Shown here one piece after another: positions 1 to 8,522 of a DNA stretch of 8,522 nucleotides. The notes below the pieces were generated by a model that saw only the letters and a program-made list of their open reading frames with translations, had not been told where the DNA came from and did no database searches. The stretch is from a virus (lineage: Duplodnaviria > Heunggongvirae > Uroviricota > Caudoviricetes). Location: positions 1 through 8,522 of IMG/VR virus record IMGVR_UViG_2541047751_000016; one strand, 5' to 3'. The position numbers and the translations under genes were made by a program. The stretch's first letter is position 1. The number at the start of each line of letters is the position of its first letter.

Positions 1-693
1 GAATGGCACGCTCTGGAAAAACGAGCACTGGCAGAAGGCTGGACACCATCGCGCTATCTTCTGACGCTATGCAATGAAGAACTCCTGTGGCGCGAGAGTG
101 AAAAACTGCGTCGTTATAAAAAGGAGGCCCGGTTGCCAGTTGCCAAAACGCTAAGCGAATACGACTTCAGTCAGGTGCCGGAACTGAATGGAGCTCAGTT
201 CCGGCAACTCTGTGAAACGACAGACTGGGTTGATGCAGGAGAAAACGTTCTGCTGTTCGGAGCCAGCGGGTTGGGGAAAAGCCATCTGGCGGCAGCGATC
301 GTGGATGGCGTAGTAGGCCAGGGCTACCGGGCCCGGTTCTACAGCGCAGGAGAGTTGTTGCAGGAACTACGTAAAGCCAGAGCGCAGTTGAAACTGAATG
401 AGCTGCTACTGAAACTGGATCGCTACCGGGTGATAGTGGTGGATGATCTTGGCTATGTCAAACGCGACAGCGCCGAAACGGGAGTACTGTTCGAGTTAAT
501 AGCGCATCGCTATGAACGTGGGAGCCTGGTGATAACCAGTAACCATCCGTTCAGCATGTGGGGCAGCATCTTCGTGGATGAGACTATGGCGGTGGCGGCG
601 GCAGACCGGCTGATCCATCACGGATATATGTTCGAACTGAAAGGTGAAAGCTACAGGAAAAAGACAGCGAAGGCAGTAACAAGCGCGACTTGA
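1..693 (+). CDS. istB: IstB-like AAA+ ATP-binding transposition helper of IS21 family (5'-truncated by window edge)
   Basis: Frame 1 is open from base 1 (EWHALEKRALAEGW...). Translation shows LPVAKTLSEYDF, Walker A GASGLGKSHLAAA, Walker B-like VIVVDDLGY, ITSNHPF and C-terminal DRLIHHGYMFELKGESYRKK, matching the IstB/DnaC-like family from memory. Confidence 0.9.
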   Translation, partial: EWHALEKRALAEGWTPSRYLLTLCNEELLWRESEKLRRYKKEARLPVAKTLSEYDFSQVPELNGAQFRQLCETTDWVDAGENVLLFGASGLGKSHLAAAIVDGVVGQGYRARFYSAGELLQELRKARAQLKLNELLLKLDRYRVIVVDDLGYVKRDSAETGVLFELIAHRYERGSLVITSNHPFSMWGSIFVDETMAVAAADRLIHHGYMFELKGESYRKKTAKAVTSAT

Positions 694-776
694 TGTCGCA
701 CTGAAGGGTGCGGCCAGTATAGTTGGCGCGAGTCGGCAAAACTAGTTGACGTCTAATAAGTGGTCATAGCAATACA
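1..776 (+). mobile_element. IS21-family insertion sequence, 3' portion (partial; left part outside window)
   Basis: istB reading frame runs off the left edge and stops at 691-693. Bases 694-776 contain two copies of TAGTTG(G/A)CG (720-728 and 743-751), resembling the multiple terminal repeats of IS21-family ends. Exact right terminus not resolvable; candidate CA termini at 765-766 or 775-776. Confidence 0.7.
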
Positions 777-984
777 AGGGATATCTGCATTTATCCTCTA
801 TGGATCAAGCTTATACCTGTTGTATCAAGGCGCGACATTTACGCCTTACACCAGTGATTACGGAACTCTATACGATGGTAGTGAAGACATCTCTATGGCT
901 TGGATCGTCTTTGGTTTATCTATGGCCGTGTCTGTTGTAGCAGACATCATTAAGGTAATTCTCGTCTTAACCTTCGCTGACTAA
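760..984 (+). CDS. Hypothetical small membrane protein, or 3' remnant of a gene disrupted by the IS insertion
   Basis: 74-codon ORF with GTG start at 760, no clear Shine-Dalgarno, and two in-frame stops just upstream (754-759). Two hydrophobic segments (AFILYGSSLYLLY; MAWIVFGLSMAVSVVADIIKVILVL). Lies across or just beyond the presumed IS end. Confidence 0.25.
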   Translation: MVIAIQGISAFILYGSSLYLLYQGATFTPYTSDYGTLYDGSEDISMAWIVFGLSMAVSVVADIIKVILVLTFAD

Positions 985-1063
985 CCCATAATCCCGGCAG
1001 CAATAGCTATCGGGATCCACTTCACATATCCCGCATAAAAAGCACTGAACAAGCAGACACCGA

Positions 1064-1150
1064 AAAAAATAAATATCCTTTGTATTCATTTGTTTATCAT
1101 TATTTCATCAAAAATAAATACCTTGGGTATTTACACAATAAAATACCTAC
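1064..1150. repeat. Three imperfect direct repeats of A-rich/ATA(T)CCT motif in AT-rich intergenic DNA
   Basis: AAAAATAAATATCCTTTG (1064-1081), AAAAATAAATACCTTGGG (1110-1127), AATAAAATACCTAC (1137-1150). Spacing about 46 and 27 bp, no supported coding frame. Confidence 0.4.
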
Positions 1151-1370
1151 AGTATTCTTTAGCCATCAGCAGGACGCTGGAAGCCAAACGGAAAAGATTG
1201 GCAGGCTCTTTAACATTGATGGGATTGTCCCGCCGAAATGCGGGAACCAAAGAGTAGTTGGCTTTGGGATTGGATGAATGAGCAGGCTGATGCTCGACCA
1301 ATGTATAAACAGCGCTCATGGCAAGCAGTAACCAATCTGCGCCTCAAGACAGCGTCACTGGTAGTGTGGG

Positions 1371-1404
1371 CGCTCTAACCAGTAAGCCGGAGTTCAGCAC
1401 CGGC
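1371..1404 (+). promoter_or_regulatory. Candidate nut-like site A: boxA-like CGCTCTAAC followed by a GC hairpin
   Basis: CGCTCTAAC at 1371-1379 (lambda boxA is CGCTCTTA(A/C)); 6-nt spacer; hairpin GCCGG (1386-1390) / CCGGC (1400-1404) with 9-nt loop. Sits 243 nt upstream of the N-like start; a TATAAA hexamer lies at 1304-1309. Confidence 0.3.
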
Positions 1405-1489
1405 CATCCAATCGCCAAAGTCAATTCCATAGGCGTTATGCAGCCGCCACCATATTCAAGAAAGCTGCACAAGAGGTAGGAGGATTTAT

Positions 1490-1505
1490 GTGAATACTTA
1501 CATTC
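1490..1505. promoter_or_regulatory. Palindrome TGAAT-N6-ATTCA (candidate operator) in the presumed pL region
   Basis: TGAATACTTACATTCA at 1490-1505 is a dyad with 5-bp arms. It overlaps a TTACAT (1498-1503) -35-like hexamer. Half-site GTATTCA/TGAATAC recurs at 1082-1088 and in the inverted repeat at 2930-2957. Confidence 0.2.
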
Positions 1506-1561
1506 AGTTGAGAGATTAATTAAATAGAACTGATCGAGCAGAGTCCATGAAGGCTCATAAA

Positions 1562-1591
1562 TGCTCTTCCATCCCCGTCTAATTGGCGGGG
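1562..1591 (+). promoter_or_regulatory. Candidate nut-like site B: boxA-like TGCTCTTCC followed by a 7-bp-stem pentaloop hairpin
   Basis: TGCTCTTCC at 1562-1570; hairpin CCCCGTC (1573-1579) / GGCGGGG (1585-1591) with one G-U wobble and loop TAATT (1580-1584). Sits 56 nt upstream of the N-like start codon. Confidence 0.3.
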
Positions 1592-1646
1592 AAGGAAACC
1601 ACTTTGTAATAAAAAAAATTCCAAAGTTGTTTCATCGGAGGTCAAC

Positions 1647-1946
1647 ATGACAGTAGTCATTACATATCTGGCTGACGATAACGCCAGAAATCGCCGCAGA
1701 GCACGCAGACAGGCTCAACGTGAACAGGCGATGCAAGAGCAGCGACTGGCGCGAAAAATTGCGCTAAAGCTCTCTGGTTGCGTCAGAGCAGACAAAGCAG
1801 CATCACTCGGAAGCCTTCTCTGCAAGAAGGCAGATGAAGTCGAGAGTAAACAGAATCGTATTTACTACCGCAAGCCACGCAGTGAAATGGGCGTGACTTG
1901 TGTTGGTCGCCAGAAAATGAAATTAGGCAGCAAACCACTTATTTGA
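1647..1946 (+). CDS. N: N-like transcription antitermination protein
   Basis: GGAGG at 1637-1641, ATG at 1647. N-terminal arginine-rich motif (DDNARNRRRARRQAQREQ) and C-terminus SKQNRIYYRKPRSEMGVTCVGRQKMKLGSKPLI closely resemble lambda N (ERKNQRTWYSKPGERGITCSGRQKIKGKSIPLI, from memory). First gene of the operon. Confidence 0.8.
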   Translation: MTVVITYLADDNARNRRRARRQAQREQAMQEQRLARKIALKLSGCVRADKAASLGSLLCKKADEVESKQNRIYYRKPRSEMGVTCVGRQKMKLGSKPLI

Positions 1947-1954
1947 GGTGAGAT

Positions 1955-2041
1955 ATGGAAGAAGAATTTGAAGAGTTCGAAGGGCATCCGCAGGATGTGA
2001 TGGAGCAATACCAGGACTATCCGTATGACTACGACTATTGA
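1955..2041 (+). CDS. orf28-like acidic mini-protein (28 aa)
   Basis: GAGG at 1945-1948, ATG at 1955, MEEEFEEFEGHPQDVMEQYQDYPYDYDY. Overlaps the ral start by 17 bp, the same arrangement I recall for lambda orf28/ral. Too short for composition statistics. Confidence 0.4.
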   Translation: MEEEFEEFEGHPQDVMEQYQDYPYDYDY

Positions 2042-2225
2042 TAAGAATCAATGGTGTGGACAATTCAAGCGATGCAATGGATGCAAGCTGCAATCGGAAT
2101 GCATGGTTAAGCCTGAAGAAATGTTTCCTGTAATGGAGGATGGGAAATATGTCGATAAATGGGCAATACGAACTACGGCAATGATTGCCAGAGAACTTGG
2201 TAAACTGAACAACAAGGCTGCCTGA
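2025..2225 (+). CDS. ral: Ral restriction-alleviation protein (anti-restriction against type I R-M)
   Basis: 66-aa product MTTTIDKNQWCGQFKRCNGCKLQSECMVKPEEMFPVMEDGKYVDKWAIRTTAMIARELGKLNNKAA is near-identical to lambda Ral as I remember it. Confidence 0.85.
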   Translation: MTTTIDKNQWCGQFKRCNGCKLQSECMVKPEEMFPVMEDGKYVDKWAIRTTAMIARELGKLNNKAA

Positions 2226-2244
2226 TGGTGGCCTTTATTTTCTT
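2214..2244 (+). terminator. Intrinsic-terminator-like hairpin after ral
   Basis: AAGGCTGCC (2214-2222) / GGTGGCCTT (2227-2235) stem with two wobble pairs, loop TGAT, then TATTTTCTTATTT. Shares GGCCTTTATTTT with the hairpin at 2874-2900. Confidence 0.5.
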
Positions 2245-2261
2245 ATTTGAGAGGAATTAAT

Positions 2262-2885
2262 ATGTCATCAATCCGCTTAACTACGAGAATGAAAGAGGAA
2301 ATCGCTCGTAACGCTTTAATTAAGTCTGGGGTTTTCACTGAACTTGAAGAAGTAACAAAGTTAAAGAACCAGCTTGCACTTGACGCCAGAGTTATTGCGT
2401 TTGGCGGTAAAAAGAAAACTGAGGAAGTGGATCAGTTATCATCCAAGTTGGTAGCTATAAGTGAAGAACTTGAAAAGATGGGATGTTCATTTTACTCATA
2501 CGATGTTCGTTCTACTTCAATTTATCTGACTGTATCTGGCAGAAGGGTTGGATGGCATTCATATGGGAAAGACGGCAACGGCGAAGATATATTGCTCCCT
2601 ACTCCGACCAAAGATAAATGCATGTTTGACGCAGAACACGAAATAACAGAAAGGTTTGATGAAATCTGCGCATTACAACAAAAACTTGAAGCAAAGAAAA
2701 AGGATATCGAATCAAATGTATGGGCTGCTTTAAACTCAGTCACAACAGTTAAGCGACTCATTGAAGTTTGGCCTGAAAGCAAAGAATTGCTACCAAAAGA
2801 AGCAGATAAAGCAAGTACAGCACTTCCTGCTTTACGGGTAGAAGATTTGAATAAGATGATTGGACTTCCTTCCGAGGCCGCATAG
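2262..2885 (+). CDS. Hypothetical protein (207 aa), no family recognised
   Basis: GAGAGGA at 2249-2255, ATG at 2262, long open frame. Product MSSIRLTTRMKEEIARNALIKSG...GWHSYGKDGNGEDILLPTPTKDKCMFDAEHE... Occupies the position of lambda ea10 between ral and cIII. Looks more AT-rich than its neighbours by eye. Confidence 0.75.
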   Translation: MSSIRLTTRMKEEIARNALIKSGVFTELEEVTKLKNQLALDARVIAFGGKKKTEEVDQLSSKLVAISEELEKMGCSFYSYDVRSTSIYLTVSGRRVGWHSYGKDGNGEDILLPTPTKDKCMFDAEHEITERFDEICALQQKLEAKKKDIESNVWAALNSVTTVKRLIEVWPESKELLPKEADKASTALPALRVEDLNKMIGLPSEAA

Positions 2886-2900
2886 TCGGCCTTTATTTTT
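2874..2900 (+). terminator. Intrinsic terminator after the 207-aa gene
   Basis: Stem AGGCCG (2875-2880) / CGGCCT (2887-2892), loop CATAGT containing the stop codon, then TTATTTTT. Confidence 0.65.
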
Positions 2901-2927
2901 GGCACTAACAACAGAATAAACACTGCA

Positions 2928-2959
2928 CTGTGTATTCATTCCAACGAGTGAATACACGG
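2928..2959. repeat. Near-perfect inverted repeat (9-bp arms, 10-nt spacer)
   Basis: GTGTATTCA (2930-2938) and TGAATACAC (2949-2957), extendable to 2928-2959 with a wobble. No U-tract follows, so not a typical terminator. Confidence 0.6.
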
Positions 2960-3019
2960 AGCAATGTCGCTCGTAACTAAACAGGAGCCGACTTGTTCTG
3001 ATTATTGGAAATCTTCTTT

Positions 3020-3046
3020 GCCCTCCAGTGTGAGGGCCTTTTTATA
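3020..3046 (+). terminator. Intrinsic terminator upstream of the cIII-like gene
   Basis: Stem GCCCTC (3020-3025) / GAGGGC (3032-3037), loop CAGTGT, then CTTTTTATAT. Confidence 0.65.
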
Positions 3047-3109
3047 TGCATACCAATAACGCTTCACTCGAGGCGTTTTCGTTATGCAATCAAACAGAAG
3101 GAGCATCCT

Positions 3110-3280
3110 ATGCAACAGTTCGCTATTGCAGGGGCGGCATCGGTTCGCCCTTTCAACCCGATTTTATCGGTACAGCATTCACGAAAAAATATTTTAACCG
3201 GAGCAGACTTTAAACAACCAAGAATGAAAAGTTTGCTCGAAAAGCTTTGGGATATTTTGAAACAACAAGGCCGTCCATGA
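3110..3280 (+). CDS. cIII: cIII-like protein (putative FtsH/HflB protease inhibitor)
   Basis: AAGGAG at 3098-3103, ATG at 3110, 56 aa. N-terminal MQQFAIAG and C-terminal LLEKLWDILKQQGRP resemble lambda CIII (MQYAIAG...WKRLIDILNQPGVP, from memory); position matches lambda gene order. Confidence 0.6.
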   Translation: MQQFAIAGAASVRPFNPILSVQHSRKNILTGADFKQPRMKSLLEKLWDILKQQGRP

Positions 3281-3384
3281 GTTTTACAGATAACTGGTCA
3301 GACGAAGAATTCATTCGTCAGATGAACAAAATGCTCAATCAGCACAAAGAACAGGAGAAAGATGATGATTCTGACTCTGAATGA
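3277..3384 (+). CDS. Small ORF (35 aa) at the kil position; doubtful
   Basis: ATG at 3277 overlaps the cIII-like stop (ATGA). Product MSFTDNWSDEEFIRQMNKMLNQHKEQEKDDDSDSE. Overlaps the next gene by 23 bp in another frame. Supported only by coupling geometry and synteny. Confidence 0.25.
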   Translation: MSFTDNWSDEEFIRQMNKMLNQHKEQEKDDDSDSE

Positions 3385-3673
3385 TAAGCGTGAAATATCG
3401 CAAATAATCGCAAGTTTTACTGATGAAGATTACGAGCGAATCAACAGTGAAGTTGATCGTCTCTGCAAACGTTGCGACCCAATAAGCGAAATGCTTCGCT
3501 CATATAAACCAGATGAACACACTAAGGACGCTATCGACTGGCTGGAAGATGATGACTGTAACTATCAGGAAAAAGCCGCTGAATGGTTCTGGGATGCAAT
3601 AACCGAAAGAGTTAAGGCTGAATATGCCTTCTCAATATTCAAACGCAGACACATTTTTGGAGAAGCTGCATGA
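3362..3673 (+). CDS. Hypothetical protein (103 aa) immediately upstream of recT
   Basis: AGGAG at 3353-3357; ATG at 3362 (or 3365). Stop overlaps the recT start (ATGA at 3670-3673). Acidic product with WLEDDDCNYQEKAAEWFWDAI. Occupies the gam position by synteny, with no similarity to Gam recognised. Confidence 0.65.
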   Translation: MMILTLNDKREISQIIASFTDEDYERINSEVDRLCKRCDPISEMLRSYKPDEHTKDAIDWLEDDDCNYQEKAAEWFWDAITERVKAEYAFSIFKRRHIFGEAA

Positions 3674-4581
3674 GCAATATCGTTGAATTCGTTAAACAGC
3701 AGGAGCAGTTATTCTGCGGAGCATTGACTGAACAGACGGTGACATGGGCTAAGGAAAGCCAGTTTGCAATTCAGTATTTCCAGAAAAATGATTACCTGGC
3801 TAAAACGGCACTGGCAAATCCAACCAGCGCACAGAACGCCATCATCAATGTTGCGGCGATCGGCATCACCTTAAACCCGGCTAGCAAACTGGCTTATCTG
3901 GTTCCGCGCGACGGCATGGTGTGCCTTGATATCAGTTATATGGGATTGCTCCATATTGCAATGGAGTCTGGTGTTATCTCATGGGGTCAGGCAAAACTTG
4001 TTCATGCTAACGATACCTATGAGTCAAACGGGCTTGATAAAGCACCAACCCATAAATACAACGCCTTCGGTGATCGTGGTGATATCGTTGGCGTTTACTG
4101 CACAGTTAAGACGCCAGCAGGTGATTATCTAACGGAAGAGATGAGTCTGGCTGAAATTGAGGCTGTAAGGAAAACAAGCAAGGCGGCATTCAGCGATAAA
4201 GGACCATGGGTAAATCACTGGAATGAGATGGCGCGAAAGACGGTCGTAAAGCGTGCAAGCAAGTATTGGCCTAAGGCATCACGTCTTGATAGTGCTATTC
4301 ACGTACTAAACGAAGAAGAAGGTGTGTGGACTGAACCAGTTATGCCGCACAAATCAGAGGAAGATATCCGCGAAGATGAACGGAAACGCCAGCAGGAAAT
4401 AATGGATAAAGTACAACTTCTTTGCGATGAAATGGCTCAGGCAGAAAACATGGATGATTTGAAGCGATATTTTGCAGAAGCATATCGCCTGACATCTGGA
4501 ATGAAATTGCAGCAGAACGTACAAGCCATTTACATAGAATGCAAAGCGAAACTGGAGGTTGCCAGTGAGCAAACTGTATGA
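3670..4581 (+). CDS. recT: RecT-family single-strand annealing protein (phage recombinase)
   Basis: GGAG at 3658-3661, ATG at 3670, 303 aa. Motif GPWVNHWNEMARKTVVKRASKYWP matches E. coli RecT GPWVTHWEEMAKKTAIRRLFKYLP (from memory). Carries an extra charged C-terminal tail of about 80 aa. Confidence 0.85.
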   Translation: MSNIVEFVKQQEQLFCGALTEQTVTWAKESQFAIQYFQKNDYLAKTALANPTSAQNAIINVAAIGITLNPASKLAYLVPRDGMVCLDISYMGLLHIAMESGVISWGQAKLVHANDTYESNGLDKAPTHKYNAFGDRGDIVGVYCTVKTPAGDYLTEEMSLAEIEAVRKTSKAAFSDKGPWVNHWNEMARKTVVKRASKYWPKASRLDSAIHVLNEEEGVWTEPVMPHKSEEDIREDERKRQQEIMDKVQLLCDEMAQAENMDDLKRYFAEAYRLTSGMKLQQNVQAIYIECKAKLEVASEQTV

Positions 4582-5047
4582 AATAGCCAATGAATACGCA
4601 AAGCTGATGGATTCAGATTTAGAGCCAGAGATGATTGCTGACACAATAGAAGGCATGGAAGGAGAATTTACCGATAAAATAGAGCAACTTCTTTCCGTCA
4701 TTAAAAATGAATCTGGTTATGCCGAACGCCTCAAGGAAGAGGCAAAGTCACTGAATGAGCGAGCCGCAGTAATTCAAAATAAGATTGAGAGCATCAAATC
4801 ATATATAGCGTCATCGCTTGAAATGGTTGGCAAGAAAAATATTCGAGCAGGCATTCACCAGGTAACAATCCGAAAACCGTCAGAAATTGTAGAAATCATC
4901 GACTCAAGCGCCCTTCCTCCTGAATACGTTGAGTTCGAAACGACAATTAAAGCCGACAAACTGGCAATCAAACACCAACTAAAAGCAGGAATAAATATCC
5001 CCGGCGCTCAACTCAAAGTTGGGAAACCTTCACTTCTTATCAAATAA
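4565..5047 (+). CDS. Siphovirus Gp157-family protein
   Basis: GGAGG at 4554-4558, GTG at 4565 (TTG at 4559 also possible); overlaps the recT 3' end. Product (V/M)SKLYEIANEYAKLMDSDLEPEMIADTIEGMEGEF... resembles Gp157-family proteins that commonly sit beside RecT/Erf genes. Confidence 0.7.
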   Translation: MSKLYEIANEYAKLMDSDLEPEMIADTIEGMEGEFTDKIEQLLSVIKNESGYAERLKEEAKSLNERAAVIQNKIESIKSYIASSLEMVGKKNIRAGIHQVTIRKPSEIVEIIDSSALPPEYVEFETTIKADKLAIKHQLKAGINIPGAQLKVGKPSLLIK

Positions 5048-5058
5048 CGGTATCGACT

Positions 5059-5373
5059 ATGAAAAAGACTCCATGGGAGAAATGGGAAGTCGATTTCTTG
5101 CGCGAAGTGGCGGCGACAATGCCAGTTGAAGTTATCGCTGAAAAACTGGAAAGGACTGAAAAAGCAGTAATGGCGAAAGCAACAAGGATTGGAGCTGACA
5201 TTGTTAGCCGACTTCGTGGAAGACGCTGGACAAGAGCCGAAGTATCACTTTTCGGTAAGTTCTCCGCAGAAGAAATAGCAATTGCAACCTGCCGCTCAAT
5301 TTATTCAGTAAGAGCTATGCGATACAAGCTAAAAAAACTCGATGAAGAAAGAGCAGGCATACGAATAAATTAA
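5059..5373 (+). CDS. Hypothetical protein with two tandem ~40-aa repeats (possible Myb/SANT-like helix-turn-helix DNA-binding protein)
   Basis: ATG at 5059. Internal repeat PWEKWEVDFLREVAATMPVEVIAEKLERTEKAVMAKATRIG versus RRWTRAEVSLFGKFSAEEIAIATCRSIYSVRAMRYKL. Basic, HTH-like composition. Confidence 0.65.
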   Translation: MKKTPWEKWEVDFLREVAATMPVEVIAEKLERTEKAVMAKATRIGADIVSRLRGRRWTRAEVSLFGKFSAEEIAIATCRSIYSVRAMRYKLKKLDEERAGIRIN

Positions 5374-5389
5374 CATGGAGTAATTAACA

Positions 5390-5671
5390 ATGAAGCTGAA
5401 CATCGACCTCGGAAAATACGTTATTACTGGAACAAAACACGACCTGATTCTTAATGAAAGAGGAATTATCAAAGAAGGCGAGAATGCAGGGAAAGAAACA
5501 CTAAGCCGTATCGGTTATTACAGCAAGTTTGAGCATCTGGTTAAAGAGTTATGCAACCGTGAAATTCTGTTATCTCAGGCGCAGACGCTACAGGATATTC
5601 AGCAGCATATCGAAACTTTAGGTGTGTCACTTAGCATGGCTATTGACCAGTTCGTTGAGAGTAAATCATGA
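5390..5671 (+). CDS. Hypothetical protein (93 aa)
   Basis: GGAG at 5377-5380, ATG at 5390. Stop overlaps the start of the next small ORF (ATGA at 5668-5671). Confidence 0.6.
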
Positions 5672-5832
5672 GAGGACTTGCATACAATCCCGGCATCCTT
5701 CCGGCAGAAATGATTATTCGCCAACGCGTAAAGCCAATGCCATCGAGAGAGGAATTGCTTAAGAGAAATTCTTTTCCTTCAGTGAATCAAAACAAATATC
5801 TGAATGCGATGTGGCGGAGTGGGAAGAAATGA
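5668..5832 (+). CDS. Hypothetical small protein (54 aa), not in the supplied ORF track
   Basis: ATG at 5668 overlaps the upstream stop (ATGA); its own stop overlaps the ATG at 5829 of the next gene (ATGA). Coupled at both ends. Product [54 protein letters not shown]. Confidence 0.4.
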
Positions 5833-6311
5833 AACAAATGTCACTAATTGAGATGGATGGATTTCTGAAAGGTAAATGCATCCCAAGTGATTTAAAGGTT
5901 AACGAAACAAACGCTGAATACCTTGTCCGTAAGTTCGGTGAACTTGAATCAAAACTGGAAACGGCGTTGCGGGAGTGTAGTTCTGCTGGAATCACGATTG
6001 ATAACCTTGAGGCTAAATGCGCGAAGATGGCTGCTGAAAATACCTCACTTAAGCAATCTGAGAAGGAATTTAATGACTTTTGTCGTGAGGAGTTTAGCGA
6101 ATGGGAAGATGATGTTACTGAAACCCCAGCCACCGATGCTTTCCTGGCTGAAGTACGGGCGCAGGGGGTAGAGATGTACGCAGATAACCTCGACAACGGA
6201 GCAGACGACGCAGAACGAGGTGGTTTTGATGATGCCGTTAAGTTTCTACGCAGTGAAGCGTCTGGTGTACGTTTGTTCGCCGACCAGCTTCGCAAAGGAG
6301 GCAACCAGTGA
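5829..6311 (+). CDS. Coiled-coil protein, Ea22-like (paralog 1)
   Basis: ATG at 5829 (in-frame GTG at 5811 is an alternative). Coiled-coil-like N-terminal half and acidic C-terminal half. Family assignment from memory is tentative. Confidence 0.6.
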
Positions 6312-6793
6312 GCAAGATTGATTATCAGGCACTGCGTGAGGCGGCAGAACGTGCAATTACGGCAATGGAACGCCTGTTAATGTTGCCAGTTGATGATGAT
6401 CTGATAAGCGAACAGGAACTTAAAGATTACGGTGTGGATATTGATGCGCTCAACGCCTTCAAATTTCTGGCCGGACCAGAAACCGTGCTGGCGCTGCTGG
6501 ATGAACGGGAAAGAAACCAGCAATACATCAAATCCCGCGACCAGGAGAACGAGGAAATTGCGCTAACGGTAGGGAAGCTGCGCGTTGAGCTTGAAGCAGA
6601 AAAACAGCGGGCAAAAGTTCTATTTATGGAAAATGCTCGGCTTAAGTCAGGCATAGCCGGTCTGATACACCTCGGTATTCGATATGCAGATGTTGAGGTC
6701 ATGAAAATTGCTGGAGATGCCCAGCTTTCTACCCCATGCACTGACAGCATCATAAACAGCATTGCAACAGGCATTCGCATCAAAGGAGAGTGA
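6308..6793 (+). CDS. Ead/Ea22-like family protein (paralog 2)
   Basis: AGGAGG at 6296-6301, GTG at 6308 overlapping the upstream stop (GTGA). N-terminus [16 protein letters not shown]... resembles proteins annotated Ead/Ea22-like in enterobacterial prophages (from memory); coiled-coil segment LTVGKLRVELEAEKQRAKVLFMENARLK. Confidence 0.65.
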   Translation: MSKIDYQALREAAERAITAMERLLMLPVDDDLISEQELKDYGVDIDALNAFKFLAGPETVLALLDERERNQQYIKSRDQENEEIALTVGKLRVELEAEKQRAKVLFMENARLKSGIAGLIHLGIRYADVEVMKIAGDAQLSTPCTDSIINSIATGIRIKGE

Positions 6794-6794
6794 T

Positions 6795-6992
6795 ATGGAT
6801 AAAAACACCACTGCTTACTGGAATCTGTCACTTGATACCGAATGCCCAAAATGCGGTCACAATTTCGATCTGCTTTGTGATGCTGATTTCTGGGAGTTTT
6901 CTGGAGCTAAACAGGCATGTGAAGAAATAAAAGGTTACGAAACATGCTGTCCAGAATGTAACCATGAATTTAAAACAGATTTCGTGTATTGA
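6795..6992 (+). CDS. Small zinc-ribbon protein (two CxxC knuckles)
   Basis: AGGAG at 6784-6788, ATG at 6795, 65 aa. Contains CPKCGHNF and CPECNHEF, an internally duplicated knuckle typical of zinc-ribbon/rubredoxin-like folds. Confidence 0.7.
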   Translation: MDKNTTAYWNLSLDTECPKCGHNFDLLCDADFWEFSGAKQACEEIKGYETCCPECNHEFKTDFVY

Positions 6993-7002
6993 GGCATAAC
7001 AA

Positions 7003-7614
7003 ATGACCACTATTACCAGAGAACAGGCACAGAAAATTATTGAAGCAGCCGATGAGGTTATTAGTGCGCTGGCCGGAACTAATGAGGATGTTAACCCTGA
7101 TAGCAATGACATGCTACGTCTGTGGGATGACCTGAATGACCGTCACGCGCCCCCTGAAGTTGTGCGTGAGCTGGCACGAATTGCGCTGGCATCGCTGGGA
7201 GCAGAACCTGTAAGCCAAGCTTACAACTTGCCAGAATTAATCGAAGGCATGGAGGTTTCCATTGATGTAAGCACTTGTGATGCGGATTTAGGTAATCGCT
7301 ATTTCGGTACCGTCACCGAGGCGTTAGAACTTGATACTGCCAAGAATGGTTACATCCTCCTGGTTCAGGACGCAGAGCCAAACTTCGATGTAAATGGCAA
7401 CTCTCCGGTAACTCCGGATGGTTGGATAAGCTGTAGTGAGCGAATGCCCCCTCAAGATGATTGGATTTTAATTTATTCAAAGCACGGCGAGTATATGGCA
7501 GGACAGGTACAAGGGGAATACGTGGAGTTGAGCGACGGCACTTTATCGTGGTTAGGGAACGTCTTGTTCTGGATGCCGCTACCAGAACCTCCGCAGGAGG
7601 TTAACCGTGGCTAA
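7003..7614 (+). CDS. DUF551-domain phage protein
   Basis: GAGG at 6992-6995, ATG at 7003, 203 aa. C-terminal WISCSERMPPQDDWILIYSKHGEYMAGQ...LSWLGNVLFWMPLPEPP matches the DUF551 signature as I remember it. Confidence 0.8.
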   Translation: MTTITREQAQKIIEAADEVISALAGTNEDVNPDSNDMLRLWDDLNDRHAPPEVVRELARIALASLGAEPVSQAYNLPELIEGMEVSIDVSTCDADLGNRYFGTVTEALELDTAKNGYILLVQDAEPNFDVNGNSPVTPDGWISCSERMPPQDDWILIYSKHGEYMAGQVQGEYVELSDGTLSWLGNVLFWMPLPEPPQEVNRG

Positions 7615-7646
7615 CCTGCAACTTGCCGTCAAAGGTGAATAACAAT

Positions 7647-7672
7647 CCTCGCACTCGCGGGGATTTCTTTTA
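7647..7672 (+). terminator. Terminator-like hairpin (first of a tandem pair) after the DUF551 gene
   Basis: Stem CCTCGC (7647-7652) / GCGGGG (7657-7662) with one G-U wobble, loop ACTC, then ATTTCTTTTA. Confidence 0.45.
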
Positions 7673-7676
7673 TCTG

Positions 7677-7702
7677 AACTCGCTACGGCGAGTTTTGTTT
7701 TA
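7677..7702 (+). terminator. Intrinsic terminator (second of the tandem pair)
   Basis: Stem AACTCGC (7677-7683) / GCGAGTT (7688-7694), loop TACG, then TTGTTTTA. Confidence 0.65.
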
Positions 7703-7714
7703 TGGAGATGATAA

Positions 7715-7882
7715 ATGCACTTCCGAGTCACAGGTGAATGGAATGGAGAGCCATTCGACAGGGTTATCGAAGCAGAGGACATCAACGACTGCTATAACCA
7801 CTGGATGATATGGGCGCAGATAGCGCATGCAGACGTAACCAATATTCGAATTGAAGAACTGAAAGAACACCAAGACGCCTGA
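7715..7882 (+). CDS. Hypothetical small protein (55 aa), not in the supplied ORF track
   Basis: GGAG at 7704-7707, ATG at 7715. Product MHFRVTGEWNGEPFDRVIEAEDINDCYNHWMIWAQIAHADVTNIRIEELKEHQDA. Sits directly after the tandem terminators. Confidence 0.55.
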   Translation: MHFRVTGEWNGEPFDRVIEAEDINDCYNHWMIWAQIAHADVTNIRIEELKEHQDA

Positions 7883-7908
7883 TGGCGGTTTTTTATTGGA
7901 GACAAGAA

Positions 7909-8253
7909 ATGTCAGATTTGGCTATGAAGGTTTTGAAATGGCAATCAACTGGCGATGTCGGCATCAGTAGCGCAACTCTTGCCTCAATCGCATGTGGACT
8001 GAAAAAAAATATCTATGGTCATCACTTCGGCGCTCCACATGACGCAGCAGACTTCCGGCGATGCGTTGCACTTGTTGAGCAGATTCCAGAAATCAGAGAT
8101 TCATTCGACAAGGTTGCAAAGCGCGTTCCGGCATTCAAAGGCATCCTCAACGAATGGGATTCTCTCGTTGCTCTGTTGAAGTTTGAAATGAAGATACACG
8201 GAAACAAAGCACCAGAGACTTACAGAAGAATCAGCGAGCTACGCAAGGACTAA
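7909..8253 (+). CDS. Hypothetical protein (114 aa)
   Basis: GGAGA at 7898-7902, ATG at 7909. Product MSDLAMKVLKWQSTGDVGISSATLASIACGLKKNIYGHHFGAPHDAADFRRCVALVEQIPEIRDSF... No family recognised. Confidence 0.65.
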   Translation: MSDLAMKVLKWQSTGDVGISSATLASIACGLKKNIYGHHFGAPHDAADFRRCVALVEQIPEIRDSFDKVAKRVPAFKGILNEWDSLVALLKFEMKIHGNKAPETYRRISELRKD

Positions 8254-8290
8254 CGCCTCACACTCGATGAGGCCTGTACATATCTGATAG

Positions 8291-8316
8291 AGCCGCTATA
8301 TGGCGGTTTCTTTTTG
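8291..8316 (+). terminator. Terminator-like hairpin before the AlpA/Xis-like gene
   Basis: Stem AGCCGC (8291-8296) / GCGGTT (8303-8308) with one G-U wobble, loop TATATG, then TCTTTTTG. A second hairpin GCCTCA-N7-TGAGGC lies at 8255-8273. Confidence 0.4.
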
Positions 8317-8330
8317 CCTGGAGAATTAAG

Positions 8331-8522
8331 ATGACCGATACCAGCCTGATTCCTGAGAAAGAAGTGATGAACAAGCTCGGTGTTTCATCACGTCAGACAA
8401 TCTGGAACTATACCAAACGGCACGGATTTCCGAAGCCAGTCAGAACCCACCCCAAATCATACCTTCGTGAAGCTGTTGAAGGGTGGATTCTTAACGGTGG
8501 CGTTAATCAGAAATGCTCCTGA
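8331..8522 (+). CDS. AlpA-family phage transcriptional regulator / putative excisionase (Xis-like)
   Basis: GGAG at 8319-8322, ATG at 8331, 63 aa. EKEVMNKLGVSSRQTIWNYTKRHGFPKPVR...YLREAVEGWI fits the AlpA-type winged-HTH pattern. Its position at the distal end of the early operon matches xis in lambdoid phages. Confidence 0.7.
   Translation: MTDTSLIPEKEVMNKLGVSSRQTIWNYTKRHGFPKPVRTHPKSYLREAVEGWILNGGVNQKCS

Follow-up and report, generated by a model that had tools for sequence, protein, structure and literature searches.

A mobile Nmad5-family gene module at the ral terminator of a lambdoid prophage

Nmad5 ("Nucleotide modification associated domain 5", PF18757 in Pfam) is a protein family named for its association with base-modification enzymes. 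Among the closest described copies of the gene treated here are those of phages HK542 (gp33, YP_007151768) and mEp235 (gp37, YP_007111613), which encode proteins of 207 amino acids (aa), ~98% identical to ours and labelled "hypothetical proteins". The gene is also found in Shiga toxin (Stx) 1a- and Stx2a-converting phages. Of 5426 complete E. coli genomes, 211 carry it at ≥90% nucleotide identity, and its RefSeq name is "Nmad5 family putative nucleotide modification protein". Here we describe an 8,522-nucleotide (nt) stretch of DNA (positions 1 to 8,522 of virus record IMGVR_UViG_2541047751_000016, hereafter the window). Its plus strand reads through the early leftward (pL) operon of a lambdoid prophage. 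We show herein that positions 2242-2899 of the window almost certainly constitute a self-contained mobile module of lambdoid phages, comprising a stand-alone Nmad5 gene with its own ribosome-binding site (RBS) and its own predicted intrinsic terminator.

The sole functional study of an Nmad5 protein in the literature found (Yamashita et al. 2025, PMC11846954) concerns Dhillonviruses, in which nmad5 is a core gene (148 records). Dhillonvirus mutants that escape the Tmn defense carry nmad5 K216E (PhiSMA8) or K296E (PhiSMS22); reversion restores sensitivity to Tmn, and deletion of nmad5 gives no escape. Wild-type nmad5 could not be cloned in E. coli owing to toxicity, and the gene is non-essential in Dhillonvirus. 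The authors name Nmad5 a DNA modification enzyme from the predicted role of the family (citing their reference 29), not from an activity assay, and no enzymatic activity of Nmad5 was reported in the literature found. A 2026 preprint describes Tmn as sensing the T2 RIIB protein. Literature searches by accessions, PF18757 and the PHROG identifier returned nothing, and the mention of HK542 in a preprint on OLD is unrelated to the Nmad5 gene.

A sequence-only reading of the window could not place the 207-aa protein in any family. This was mistaken, as the protein matches PF18757 over its full length (score 242.2 bits, cut-off 27; E = 7.2e-72; residues 4-203 cover profile positions 1-206 of 206). 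A second match, at 4e-84, is to PHROG 1965, a group whose function label is "unknown". The gene is therefore an already known entity, annotated in RefSeq, Pfam and PHROGs. An exhaustive HMMER search recovered 2292 representative clusters (50% identity) at E ≤0.001, and among the best 150 of these nearly all members were 190-220 aa long and aligned end to end. The alignments revealed a stand-alone architecture of ~200 aa with conserved N- and C-terminal positions (those tested were R5, N17-A18, K21, R43 and G48-G49, and T162, L166, W170-P171-E172, P178, L188, L196-N197 and G201). Association with modification enzymes is a feature of context, not of sequence, so membership in PF18757 stands whatever the neighbors. 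NCBIfam holds no model for the family, and Rfam gave no match; weak Pfam matches to YfjL_C, SKA2 and P4Ha_N lay far under their cut-offs and were discarded. Profile comparison found no similarity between Nmad5 and the Gp157 protein of the window, and none with lambda Ea10 (hhalign probability 0.1%; no DUF2528 match in Pfam).

The coding sequence (CDS) lies at 2262-2885 on the plus strand and specifies a protein of 23.2 kDa with an isoelectric point (pI) of 5.6. While a listing of open reading frames (ORFs) gives 2247-2885 from a TTG codon, the ATG at 2262 is the preferred start. A Shine-Dalgarno-like GAGAGG (2249-2254) lies 7 nt 5' of this ATG and is kept in all 87 related loci that we compared (80 taken from IMG/VR, the other 7 from records of phages and of E. 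coli). The ATG also agrees with the N-termini of homologues (MSSIRLT...) and with the 624-bp RefSeq CDS, and the 207-aa ORF was thus called correctly in the sequence-only reading.

Lambda and HK140 carry a single ral terminator hairpin at the point where the window carries its insert. Window positions 1930-2241 and 2882-5397 are collinear with one continuous stretch of HK140, the two alignments overlapping by 17 bp in that single terminator. In lambda, 1930-2241 corresponds to 34381-34071 (95.8% identity), and 2877-3047 to 34092-33923, after which the match jumps to 33538. From these breakpoints, the window has a 658-bp insert bounded by a duplicated 12-mer, GGCCTTTATTTT, present as exact copies at 2230-2241 and 2888-2899 (0.09 copies are expected by chance, and one of 200 shuffled sequences reached two). 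Each copy closes a terminator-like element on the plus strand. The first (2214-2241; hairpin 2214-2235, -14.6 kcal/mol, z = -3.6 against shuffles) overlaps the ral stop with its 5' arm; the second (2874-2899; hairpin 2874-2893, -11.0 kcal/mol, z = -1.9) has a 5' arm made up of the final codons of Nmad5 plus its stop (GAG GCC GCA TAG). Both consist of a stem-loop followed by a T-run and are predicted terminators by consensus match. The hairpins sharing a 12-mer had been noted before, as a footprint to be expected of a cassette swapped in by recombination at the terminator. This interpretation is borne out, since HK140 and lambda join ral to the region upstream of cIII through one copy of the duplicated terminator. 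The HK542 and mEp235 sequences become homologous to the window at 2242, immediately next to the end of N in HK542 and of a Nun-like gene in mEp235. Alignment of the locus across relatives thus identifies the gene as a presence/absence module, not fixed in close relatives.

The left edge of the module (2242-2899, plus strand, repeat spacing 658) coincides with a second repeat. The 10-mer CTTATTTGAG occurs as a direct repeat at 1938-1947 and 2242-2251 (0.03 copies expected by chance), its first copy being included in the C-terminal codons of N (GSKPLI, stop). These repeats bracket the orf28-ral module (~304 bp), which is precisely missing between them in HK542 and most relatives. In 75 of the 87 loci, N, or another gene of the N region (Nun-like in mEp235), ends in ...GCAGCAAACCACTTATTTGA, followed by GAGGAATTAAT and then the ATG; the other 12 have the order of the window, with the ral terminator, then CTTATTTGAG, then the Nmad5 gene. 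A CTTATTTGAG-type left junction, which in most relatives is the end of N itself, and a GGCCTTTATTTT-type hairpin 3' of the gene, with point variants, were present in every locus. The simplest history would have N-Nmad5-terminator as the usual form and N-orf28-ral-terminator as the other common form, with the lineage of the window as a recombinant that carries both modules in tandem. Placing an orf28-ral module with its own terminator copy between N and Nmad5 would account for the duplicated terminator. The right joint would then lie inside the shared terminator, and the left joint would be at the contact between the terminator T-run and the CTTATTTGAG boundary, where both share TTATTT as a microhomology read from the sequences. 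The locus illustrates lambdoid mosaicism in textbook form: its modules meet at short and conserved boundaries, one being the end of N and the other a shared terminator.

About 15 of the 87 loci diverge 3' of the Nmad5 terminator, right after ...AACAACAGA (also given as ...TGGCATAAACAACAGA). Extra small ORFs follow the terminator in ETEC1701 (positions 5491-5817 of locus L001) and in ST131 strain 4433 (3164-3889 of locus L006), and comprise one of 108 aa in one case and two of 83 and 156 aa in another. The region just 3' of the Nmad5 terminator is a further cargo slot.

The order N, orf28, ral, 207-aa gene, cIII described in the sequence-only reading is correct, but its assignment of the gene to the ea10 slot was wrong. 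The insert falls at lambda 34071-34092, at the ral terminator. In lambda, ea10 starts after the next hairpin, GCCCTCCAGTGTGAGGGC (window 3020-3037), and the same holds in Stx2a phages. In the window, homology with lambda ends at this hairpin and resumes just upstream of cIII; ea10 (interval 33922-33539 of lambda) is therefore simply absent, and its slot is empty. The two genes coexist in Stx2_716 (Stx2a-converting; locus L171), whose order is N, Nmad5, the hairpin with its intergenic region, a 122-aa ea10 homologue (4706-5074) and cIII. The GCCCTCCAGTGTGAGGGC hairpin (window 3020-3050 against lambda 33923-33538) marks another module boundary. Across E. coli prophages, the cargo between N and cIII includes ral, sieB, Nun-like genes, ea10/DUF2528, TolA-like genes and extra small ORFs. 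The sequence-only reading had stressed a cargo locus beside ral; the interval from N to cIII is indeed a cargo hot spot, but adjacency to ral is confined to the minority recombinant lineage.

In Stx2_716, an insertion sequence (IS) of the IS3 family (L171 2569-4687; about 2365-2368 in the window) interrupts Nmad5 close to codon 35 and encodes orfA (108 aa) and orfB (296 aa) on the opposite strand. Of 48 matching Stx2a-converting records, the seven shown in tblastn all cover residues 34-207 at 94.8% identity. Since an IS3-family element splits the gene, Nmad5 appears dispensable in these medically important phages.

The gene had also been described as more AT-rich than its neighbors, which is true only in part. 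Its G+C content (GC; 40.1%, and 33% at third codon positions) lies at the 5th percentile of 624-bp windows of the phage part (mean 44.3%), but several neighbors are alike (gp157, 40.9%; orf93, 40.8%; orf103, 41.3%; orf76, 39.8%), and its synonymous codon likelihood given the other genes (-1.15 per codon) falls within their range (-0.89 to -1.20). A foreign origin by composition was rejected because codon choice is inside that range and the low GC is shared with these four genes. Among 55 distinct near-identical alleles, the ratio of nonsynonymous to synonymous polymorphism (pN/pS) was 0.39 overall, with values of 0.29 for residues 1-50, 0.47 for 51-125, 0.41 for 126-160 and 0.19 for 161-207; positive selection was rejected, every segment being below 0.5. 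Conservation of the family spans the Enterobacterales and well beyond. Judged from these comparisons of alleles and homologues, Nmad5 is a real, constrained gene.

An AlphaFold2 model built with 19 homologues (mean predicted local distance difference test score 85, predicted template modelling score 0.70) is a helical bundle in which three N-terminal helices are followed by a small beta hairpin (86-100), then by a long helix (127-158) and a pair of short ones (163-176). Model confidence is low for the tail (184-207), although its sequence is highly conserved. A sequence search of the PDB with the family profile gave no match, and structure matches in BFVD were only to other Nmad5 proteins. The profile and structure searches proposed in the sequence-only reading thus led to the Nmad5 family and to no solved structure. 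In an alignment of 36 sequences (~30% identity), A18, L166, W170, E172, P178, L188, L196 and N197 are invariant, and R5, I14, R43, G48, G93, V153, T162, P171, L176 and G201 are conserved in ≥90%. The invariant residues include no catalytic set of the His/Asp/Cys/Ser type, and the pattern of conservation looks structural or binding, not catalytic. The Dhillonvirus homologue (254 aa) shares only its C-terminal half with the window protein (33% identity over 100 aa, E = 4e-14). If PhiSMA8 has the 254-aa frame of 141 other Dhillonvirus records, K216 would align to R165 of the window protein, a residue within T-x-K-(K/R)-L-(I/L)-x-x-W-P-E, the most conserved block of the family.

No sigma-70-like site was found upstream of 2262 on the plus strand, where only 20 nt separate hairpin 1 from the ATG. 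In HK542, Nmad5 begins 11 nt after the N stop, with no hairpin between, and in Klebsiella, Providencia, Serratia and metagenomic prophages it is the first sizeable leftward early gene after the S24 repressor. The majority arrangement, in which the first terminator comes only after Nmad5, should consequently place Nmad5, as far as gene order indicates, in the immediate-early, antitermination-independent pL transcript together with N. In the window, the ral terminator lies ahead of Nmad5, and expression should therefore depend on N-mediated readthrough. Position on the pL strand without a promoter of its own argues against exclusion expressed in the lysogen and for a role in lytic development.

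As to function, we tentatively favor, with low confidence, a non-enzymatic, helical-bundle protein that binds a partner early in infection and serves as an accessory of host takeover or counter-defense. The protein would be made early in lytic growth and would be no enzyme, with no nucleotide-modifying activity. Its two conserved ends would bind a partner common to many hosts, such as a component of replication, recombination or repair or an immune sensor. These ends are residues 1-50 and, above all, the C-terminal SVTTVK(K/R)L(I/L)E-WPE-x-EL(L/I)P...LPA-x-V-x-x-LN-x-x-IGLP, part of which the model leaves disordered. Such a protein would be dispensable and could be toxic to the host. An early binder is suggested by the toxicity on cloning, dispensability, the patchy distribution among lambdoid phages, early timing and the gain-of-function character of the Tmn-escape mutation. 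A non-enzymatic one is suggested by the modelled helical bundle, the lack of a match among solved structures, the lack of a catalytic set and the strongest purifying selection at the ends. Early timing and the Tmn-escape mutation in the Dhillonvirus homologue keep a counter-defense or host-takeover role alive.

Several observations weigh against this picture. Nmad5 shows good conservation even between distant phages and belongs to the core genes of Dhillonviruses, which is unusual for fast-evolving anti-defense genes; a housekeeping-type part in DNA transactions would explain such wide conservation no less well. The pI of 5.6 is not markedly basic or acidic, and hence gives no hint of DNA binding or of DNA mimicry. 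PADLOC-DB v2, a library of defense proteins and not of anti-defense proteins, gave no match at E ≤0.01 for the Nmad5 protein or for eight other ORFs of the window. Nmad5 adjoins genes for a 5-hydroxymethyldeoxyuridine (5-hmdU) DNA kinase and aGPT-Pplase in M6, SN1 and Yuavirus phages, and follows a thymidylate-synthase homologue in the N4-like phage Pollock; a role connected with modified DNA may apply to these members. As for the module itself, the second of its flanking hairpins is weak, being only marginally more stable than shuffled sequences.

The alternative that survives best, which we regard as possible but rather unlikely, is an accessory of phage DNA replication or recombination, for example a loader, scaffold or end-binding factor acting on phage DNA together with the recombination or replication proteins of the phage, and not against host immunity. 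It draws on gene neighborhoods. Among 150 neighbors of ≥110 aa within five genes of Nmad5, taken from 28 IMG/VR lineages (clustered at <80% identity), the most frequent were DUF2800/PD-(D/E)XK nucleases (8), DNA polymerase A (6), Enc34 single-stranded DNA-binding proteins (SSBs; 4) and S24/HTH repressors (4), followed by HNH proteins (3), helicases (3), VapE, AAA_24, AAA_25 and Rv2179c-like exonucleases (two each), and Erf and RecT (one each). In Klebsiella, Providencia, Serratia and metagenomic prophages, Nmad5 lies upstream of Gam-RecT-YqaJ or DUF2800-Enc34 SSB-PolA modules. In N4-like and Yuavirus phages it lies within the replication block, and its core status in Dhillonviruses points the same way. 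In E. coli lambdoid prophages, it stands a few genes ahead of RecT/Gp157, of Erf/Abc2, or of an ATP-binding protein with Abc2. These modules are, however, unrelated to one another, leaving Nmad5 no fixed phage partner. Moreover, most lambdoid phages that carry these same modules lack Nmad5 (HK140 included). Nmad5 is also IS-disrupted in Stx2a phages, can be deleted in Dhillonvirus (PMC11846954), where it lies alone and inverted among head genes, and is similar to neither Gp157 nor Ea10. We place host takeover or counter-defense slightly ahead of an accessory role in replication or recombination.

It is improbable that the lambdoid copy helps in nucleotide or DNA base modification by targeting or assisting modifying enzymes, as the family name, the RefSeq label and the gene order in M6, SN1, Yuavirus and Pollock would suggest. 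Gene context bears out the association behind the family name in M6/SN1/Yuavirus phages, but not as a general rule. Neither the window nor any of the E. coli lambdoid loci looked at (among them HK140, which lacks Nmad5) showed a modification enzyme. Only one of the 150 neighbors is a methyltransferase (MT-A70), aGPT-Pplase is not among the 25 most frequent neighbor families listed, and the model has neither an enzyme-like fold nor a catalytic constellation. Hypermodified bases are not known from lambdoid coliphage DNA, which also counts against such a helper.

Exclusion or defense cargo expressed by the prophage against superinfecting phages (a moron) is very improbable: although the hot spot also hosts exclusion genes (sieB and Nun-type), a terminator of its own follows the gene, and an unspecified NMAD domain is among the predicted, unvalidated defense domains of a machine-learning survey (PMC13092281), only the downstream terminator-like hairpin was found of the promoter and terminator that define a moron, the gene lies on the same strand inside a pL operon that is repressed in the lysogen, it is closely coupled in translation to N in most relatives, it has no PADLOC match, and the family is widespread in strictly virulent phages too.

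If the early-binder reading were extended to the whole family, stand-alone Nmad5 proteins (>2000 clusters at 50% identity) would be very widespread early non-enzymatic effectors and not modification factors. The WPE...LN..IGLP block would bind a conserved host machine or an immune sensor, a single charge change in it would retune which defense is neutralized (as with Tmn in Dhillonvirus), and the lambdoid copy would be an immediate-early factor of counter-defense or takeover, transcribed together with N; we consider this broader proposal doubtful. As a sequence feature, the Nmad5 module changes little, being known from HK542, mEp235 and Stx-converting phages. What gives it value is the large family to which it points, one that was named from the gene context in a few hypermodifying phages but that, in the sample examined, has mostly replication and recombination genes as neighbors and sits at the very start of the early leftward operon. 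As HK542 and mEp235 are genetically tractable, they offer a convenient system for the function of Nmad5 and for the odd Tmn-escape genetics of Dhillonvirus.

The rest of the window, with all listed genes on the plus strand where a strand is given, is as follows. An N-like antiterminator gene (1647-1946; PHROG 271 at 8e-36, with a weak Pfam N_peptide match) is followed by a 28-aa orf28 homologue (1955-2041; translation MEEEFEEFEGHPQDVMEQYQDYPYDYDY) and the restriction-alleviation gene ral (2025-2225; Pfam Ral at 2.2e-48 over its full length, PHROG 1055), whose start is overlapped by orf28 over 17 nt, as in lambda. Past the Nmad5 module, hairpin 3 with its T-run (3020-3045) precedes a cIII-like gene (3110-3280; PHROG 550 at 1e-22, with RefSeq neighbors annotated CIII). 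Between cIII and the RecT gene (3670-4581) lies a 103-aa ORF (3362-3673) that matches PHROG 3486 at 4e-59 and gave no match in Pfam, PADLOC or NCBIfam; it is kept upstream of RecT in HK140, ETEC1701 and XJW9B263. A gene for a Gp157-family protein follows (4559-5047). At the left end, an istB fragment of the IS21 family (133-693, Pfam IstB_IS21 at 1.5e-52, plus 694 to ~759) abuts 760-1268 and extends past the end of the window. From 760 on, the window matches HK140 and ETEC1701, and the match begins ~144 nt into the small gene that separates cI from pL (at the "rex position"). Because the match resumes inside that gene, an IS21-type element seems to have inserted between the repressor gene and pL.

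On the minus strand, an ORF of 133 aa (2522-2923) covers the 3' two-thirds of the Nmad5 gene and is open in the divergent Stx2 copy as well (129 aa, L171 4162-4551). It is probably a shadow ORF of the purine-rich sense strand: its product is Ser/Leu-rich and of low complexity and has no match among the families inspected, and its pN/pS (0.47) is no better than that of the sense frame. Separately, two database records, MG065648.1 ("Campylobacter phage A144") and OQ221563.1 ("Acinetobacter phage NJ01"), carry the Dhillonvirus Nmad5 homologue with ~93% identity to E. coli Dhillonviruses, which suggests mislabelled hosts or contamination.

Compared with known systems, the locus is nearest to those of HK542 and mEp235, with which it shares the RBS, the downstream terminator, the region upstream of cIII, the location in the pL operon and a protein 98% identical. 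It differs from them in that Nmad5 there directly follows the stop of N (HK542) or of the Nun-like gene (mEp235), whereas the window interposes orf28-ral and a second terminator. Lambda Ral is an adjacent gene of the same operon with an accessory function against host restriction, but it is an unrelated 66-aa protein, and its adjacency to Nmad5 is specific to the lineage of the window. Lambda Ea10 (DUF2528), likewise of unknown function, occupies the same N-to-cIII interval, but it is not homologous, has a separate slot and coexists with Nmad5 in Stx2a phages. The Nmad5 proteins of M6, SN1 and the Yuavirus PAC9 belong to the same family, are of similar size and are encoded in early or replication regions (tblastn over residues 121-207, ~31-43% identity); their genes adjoin those for 5-hmdU DNA kinase, aGPT-Pplase and hydroxymethylase, neighbors that the lambdoid copy lacks. 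Finally, the Dhillonvirus proteins (PhiSMS22 CDS6, PhiSMA8 CDS7 and Bas84_0007) share the TxKKL-WPE...LN..G.P block with the window protein, but have an unrelated N-terminal half and belong to virulent phages, in which the gene lies inverted and alone between head-scaffold and spanin genes.

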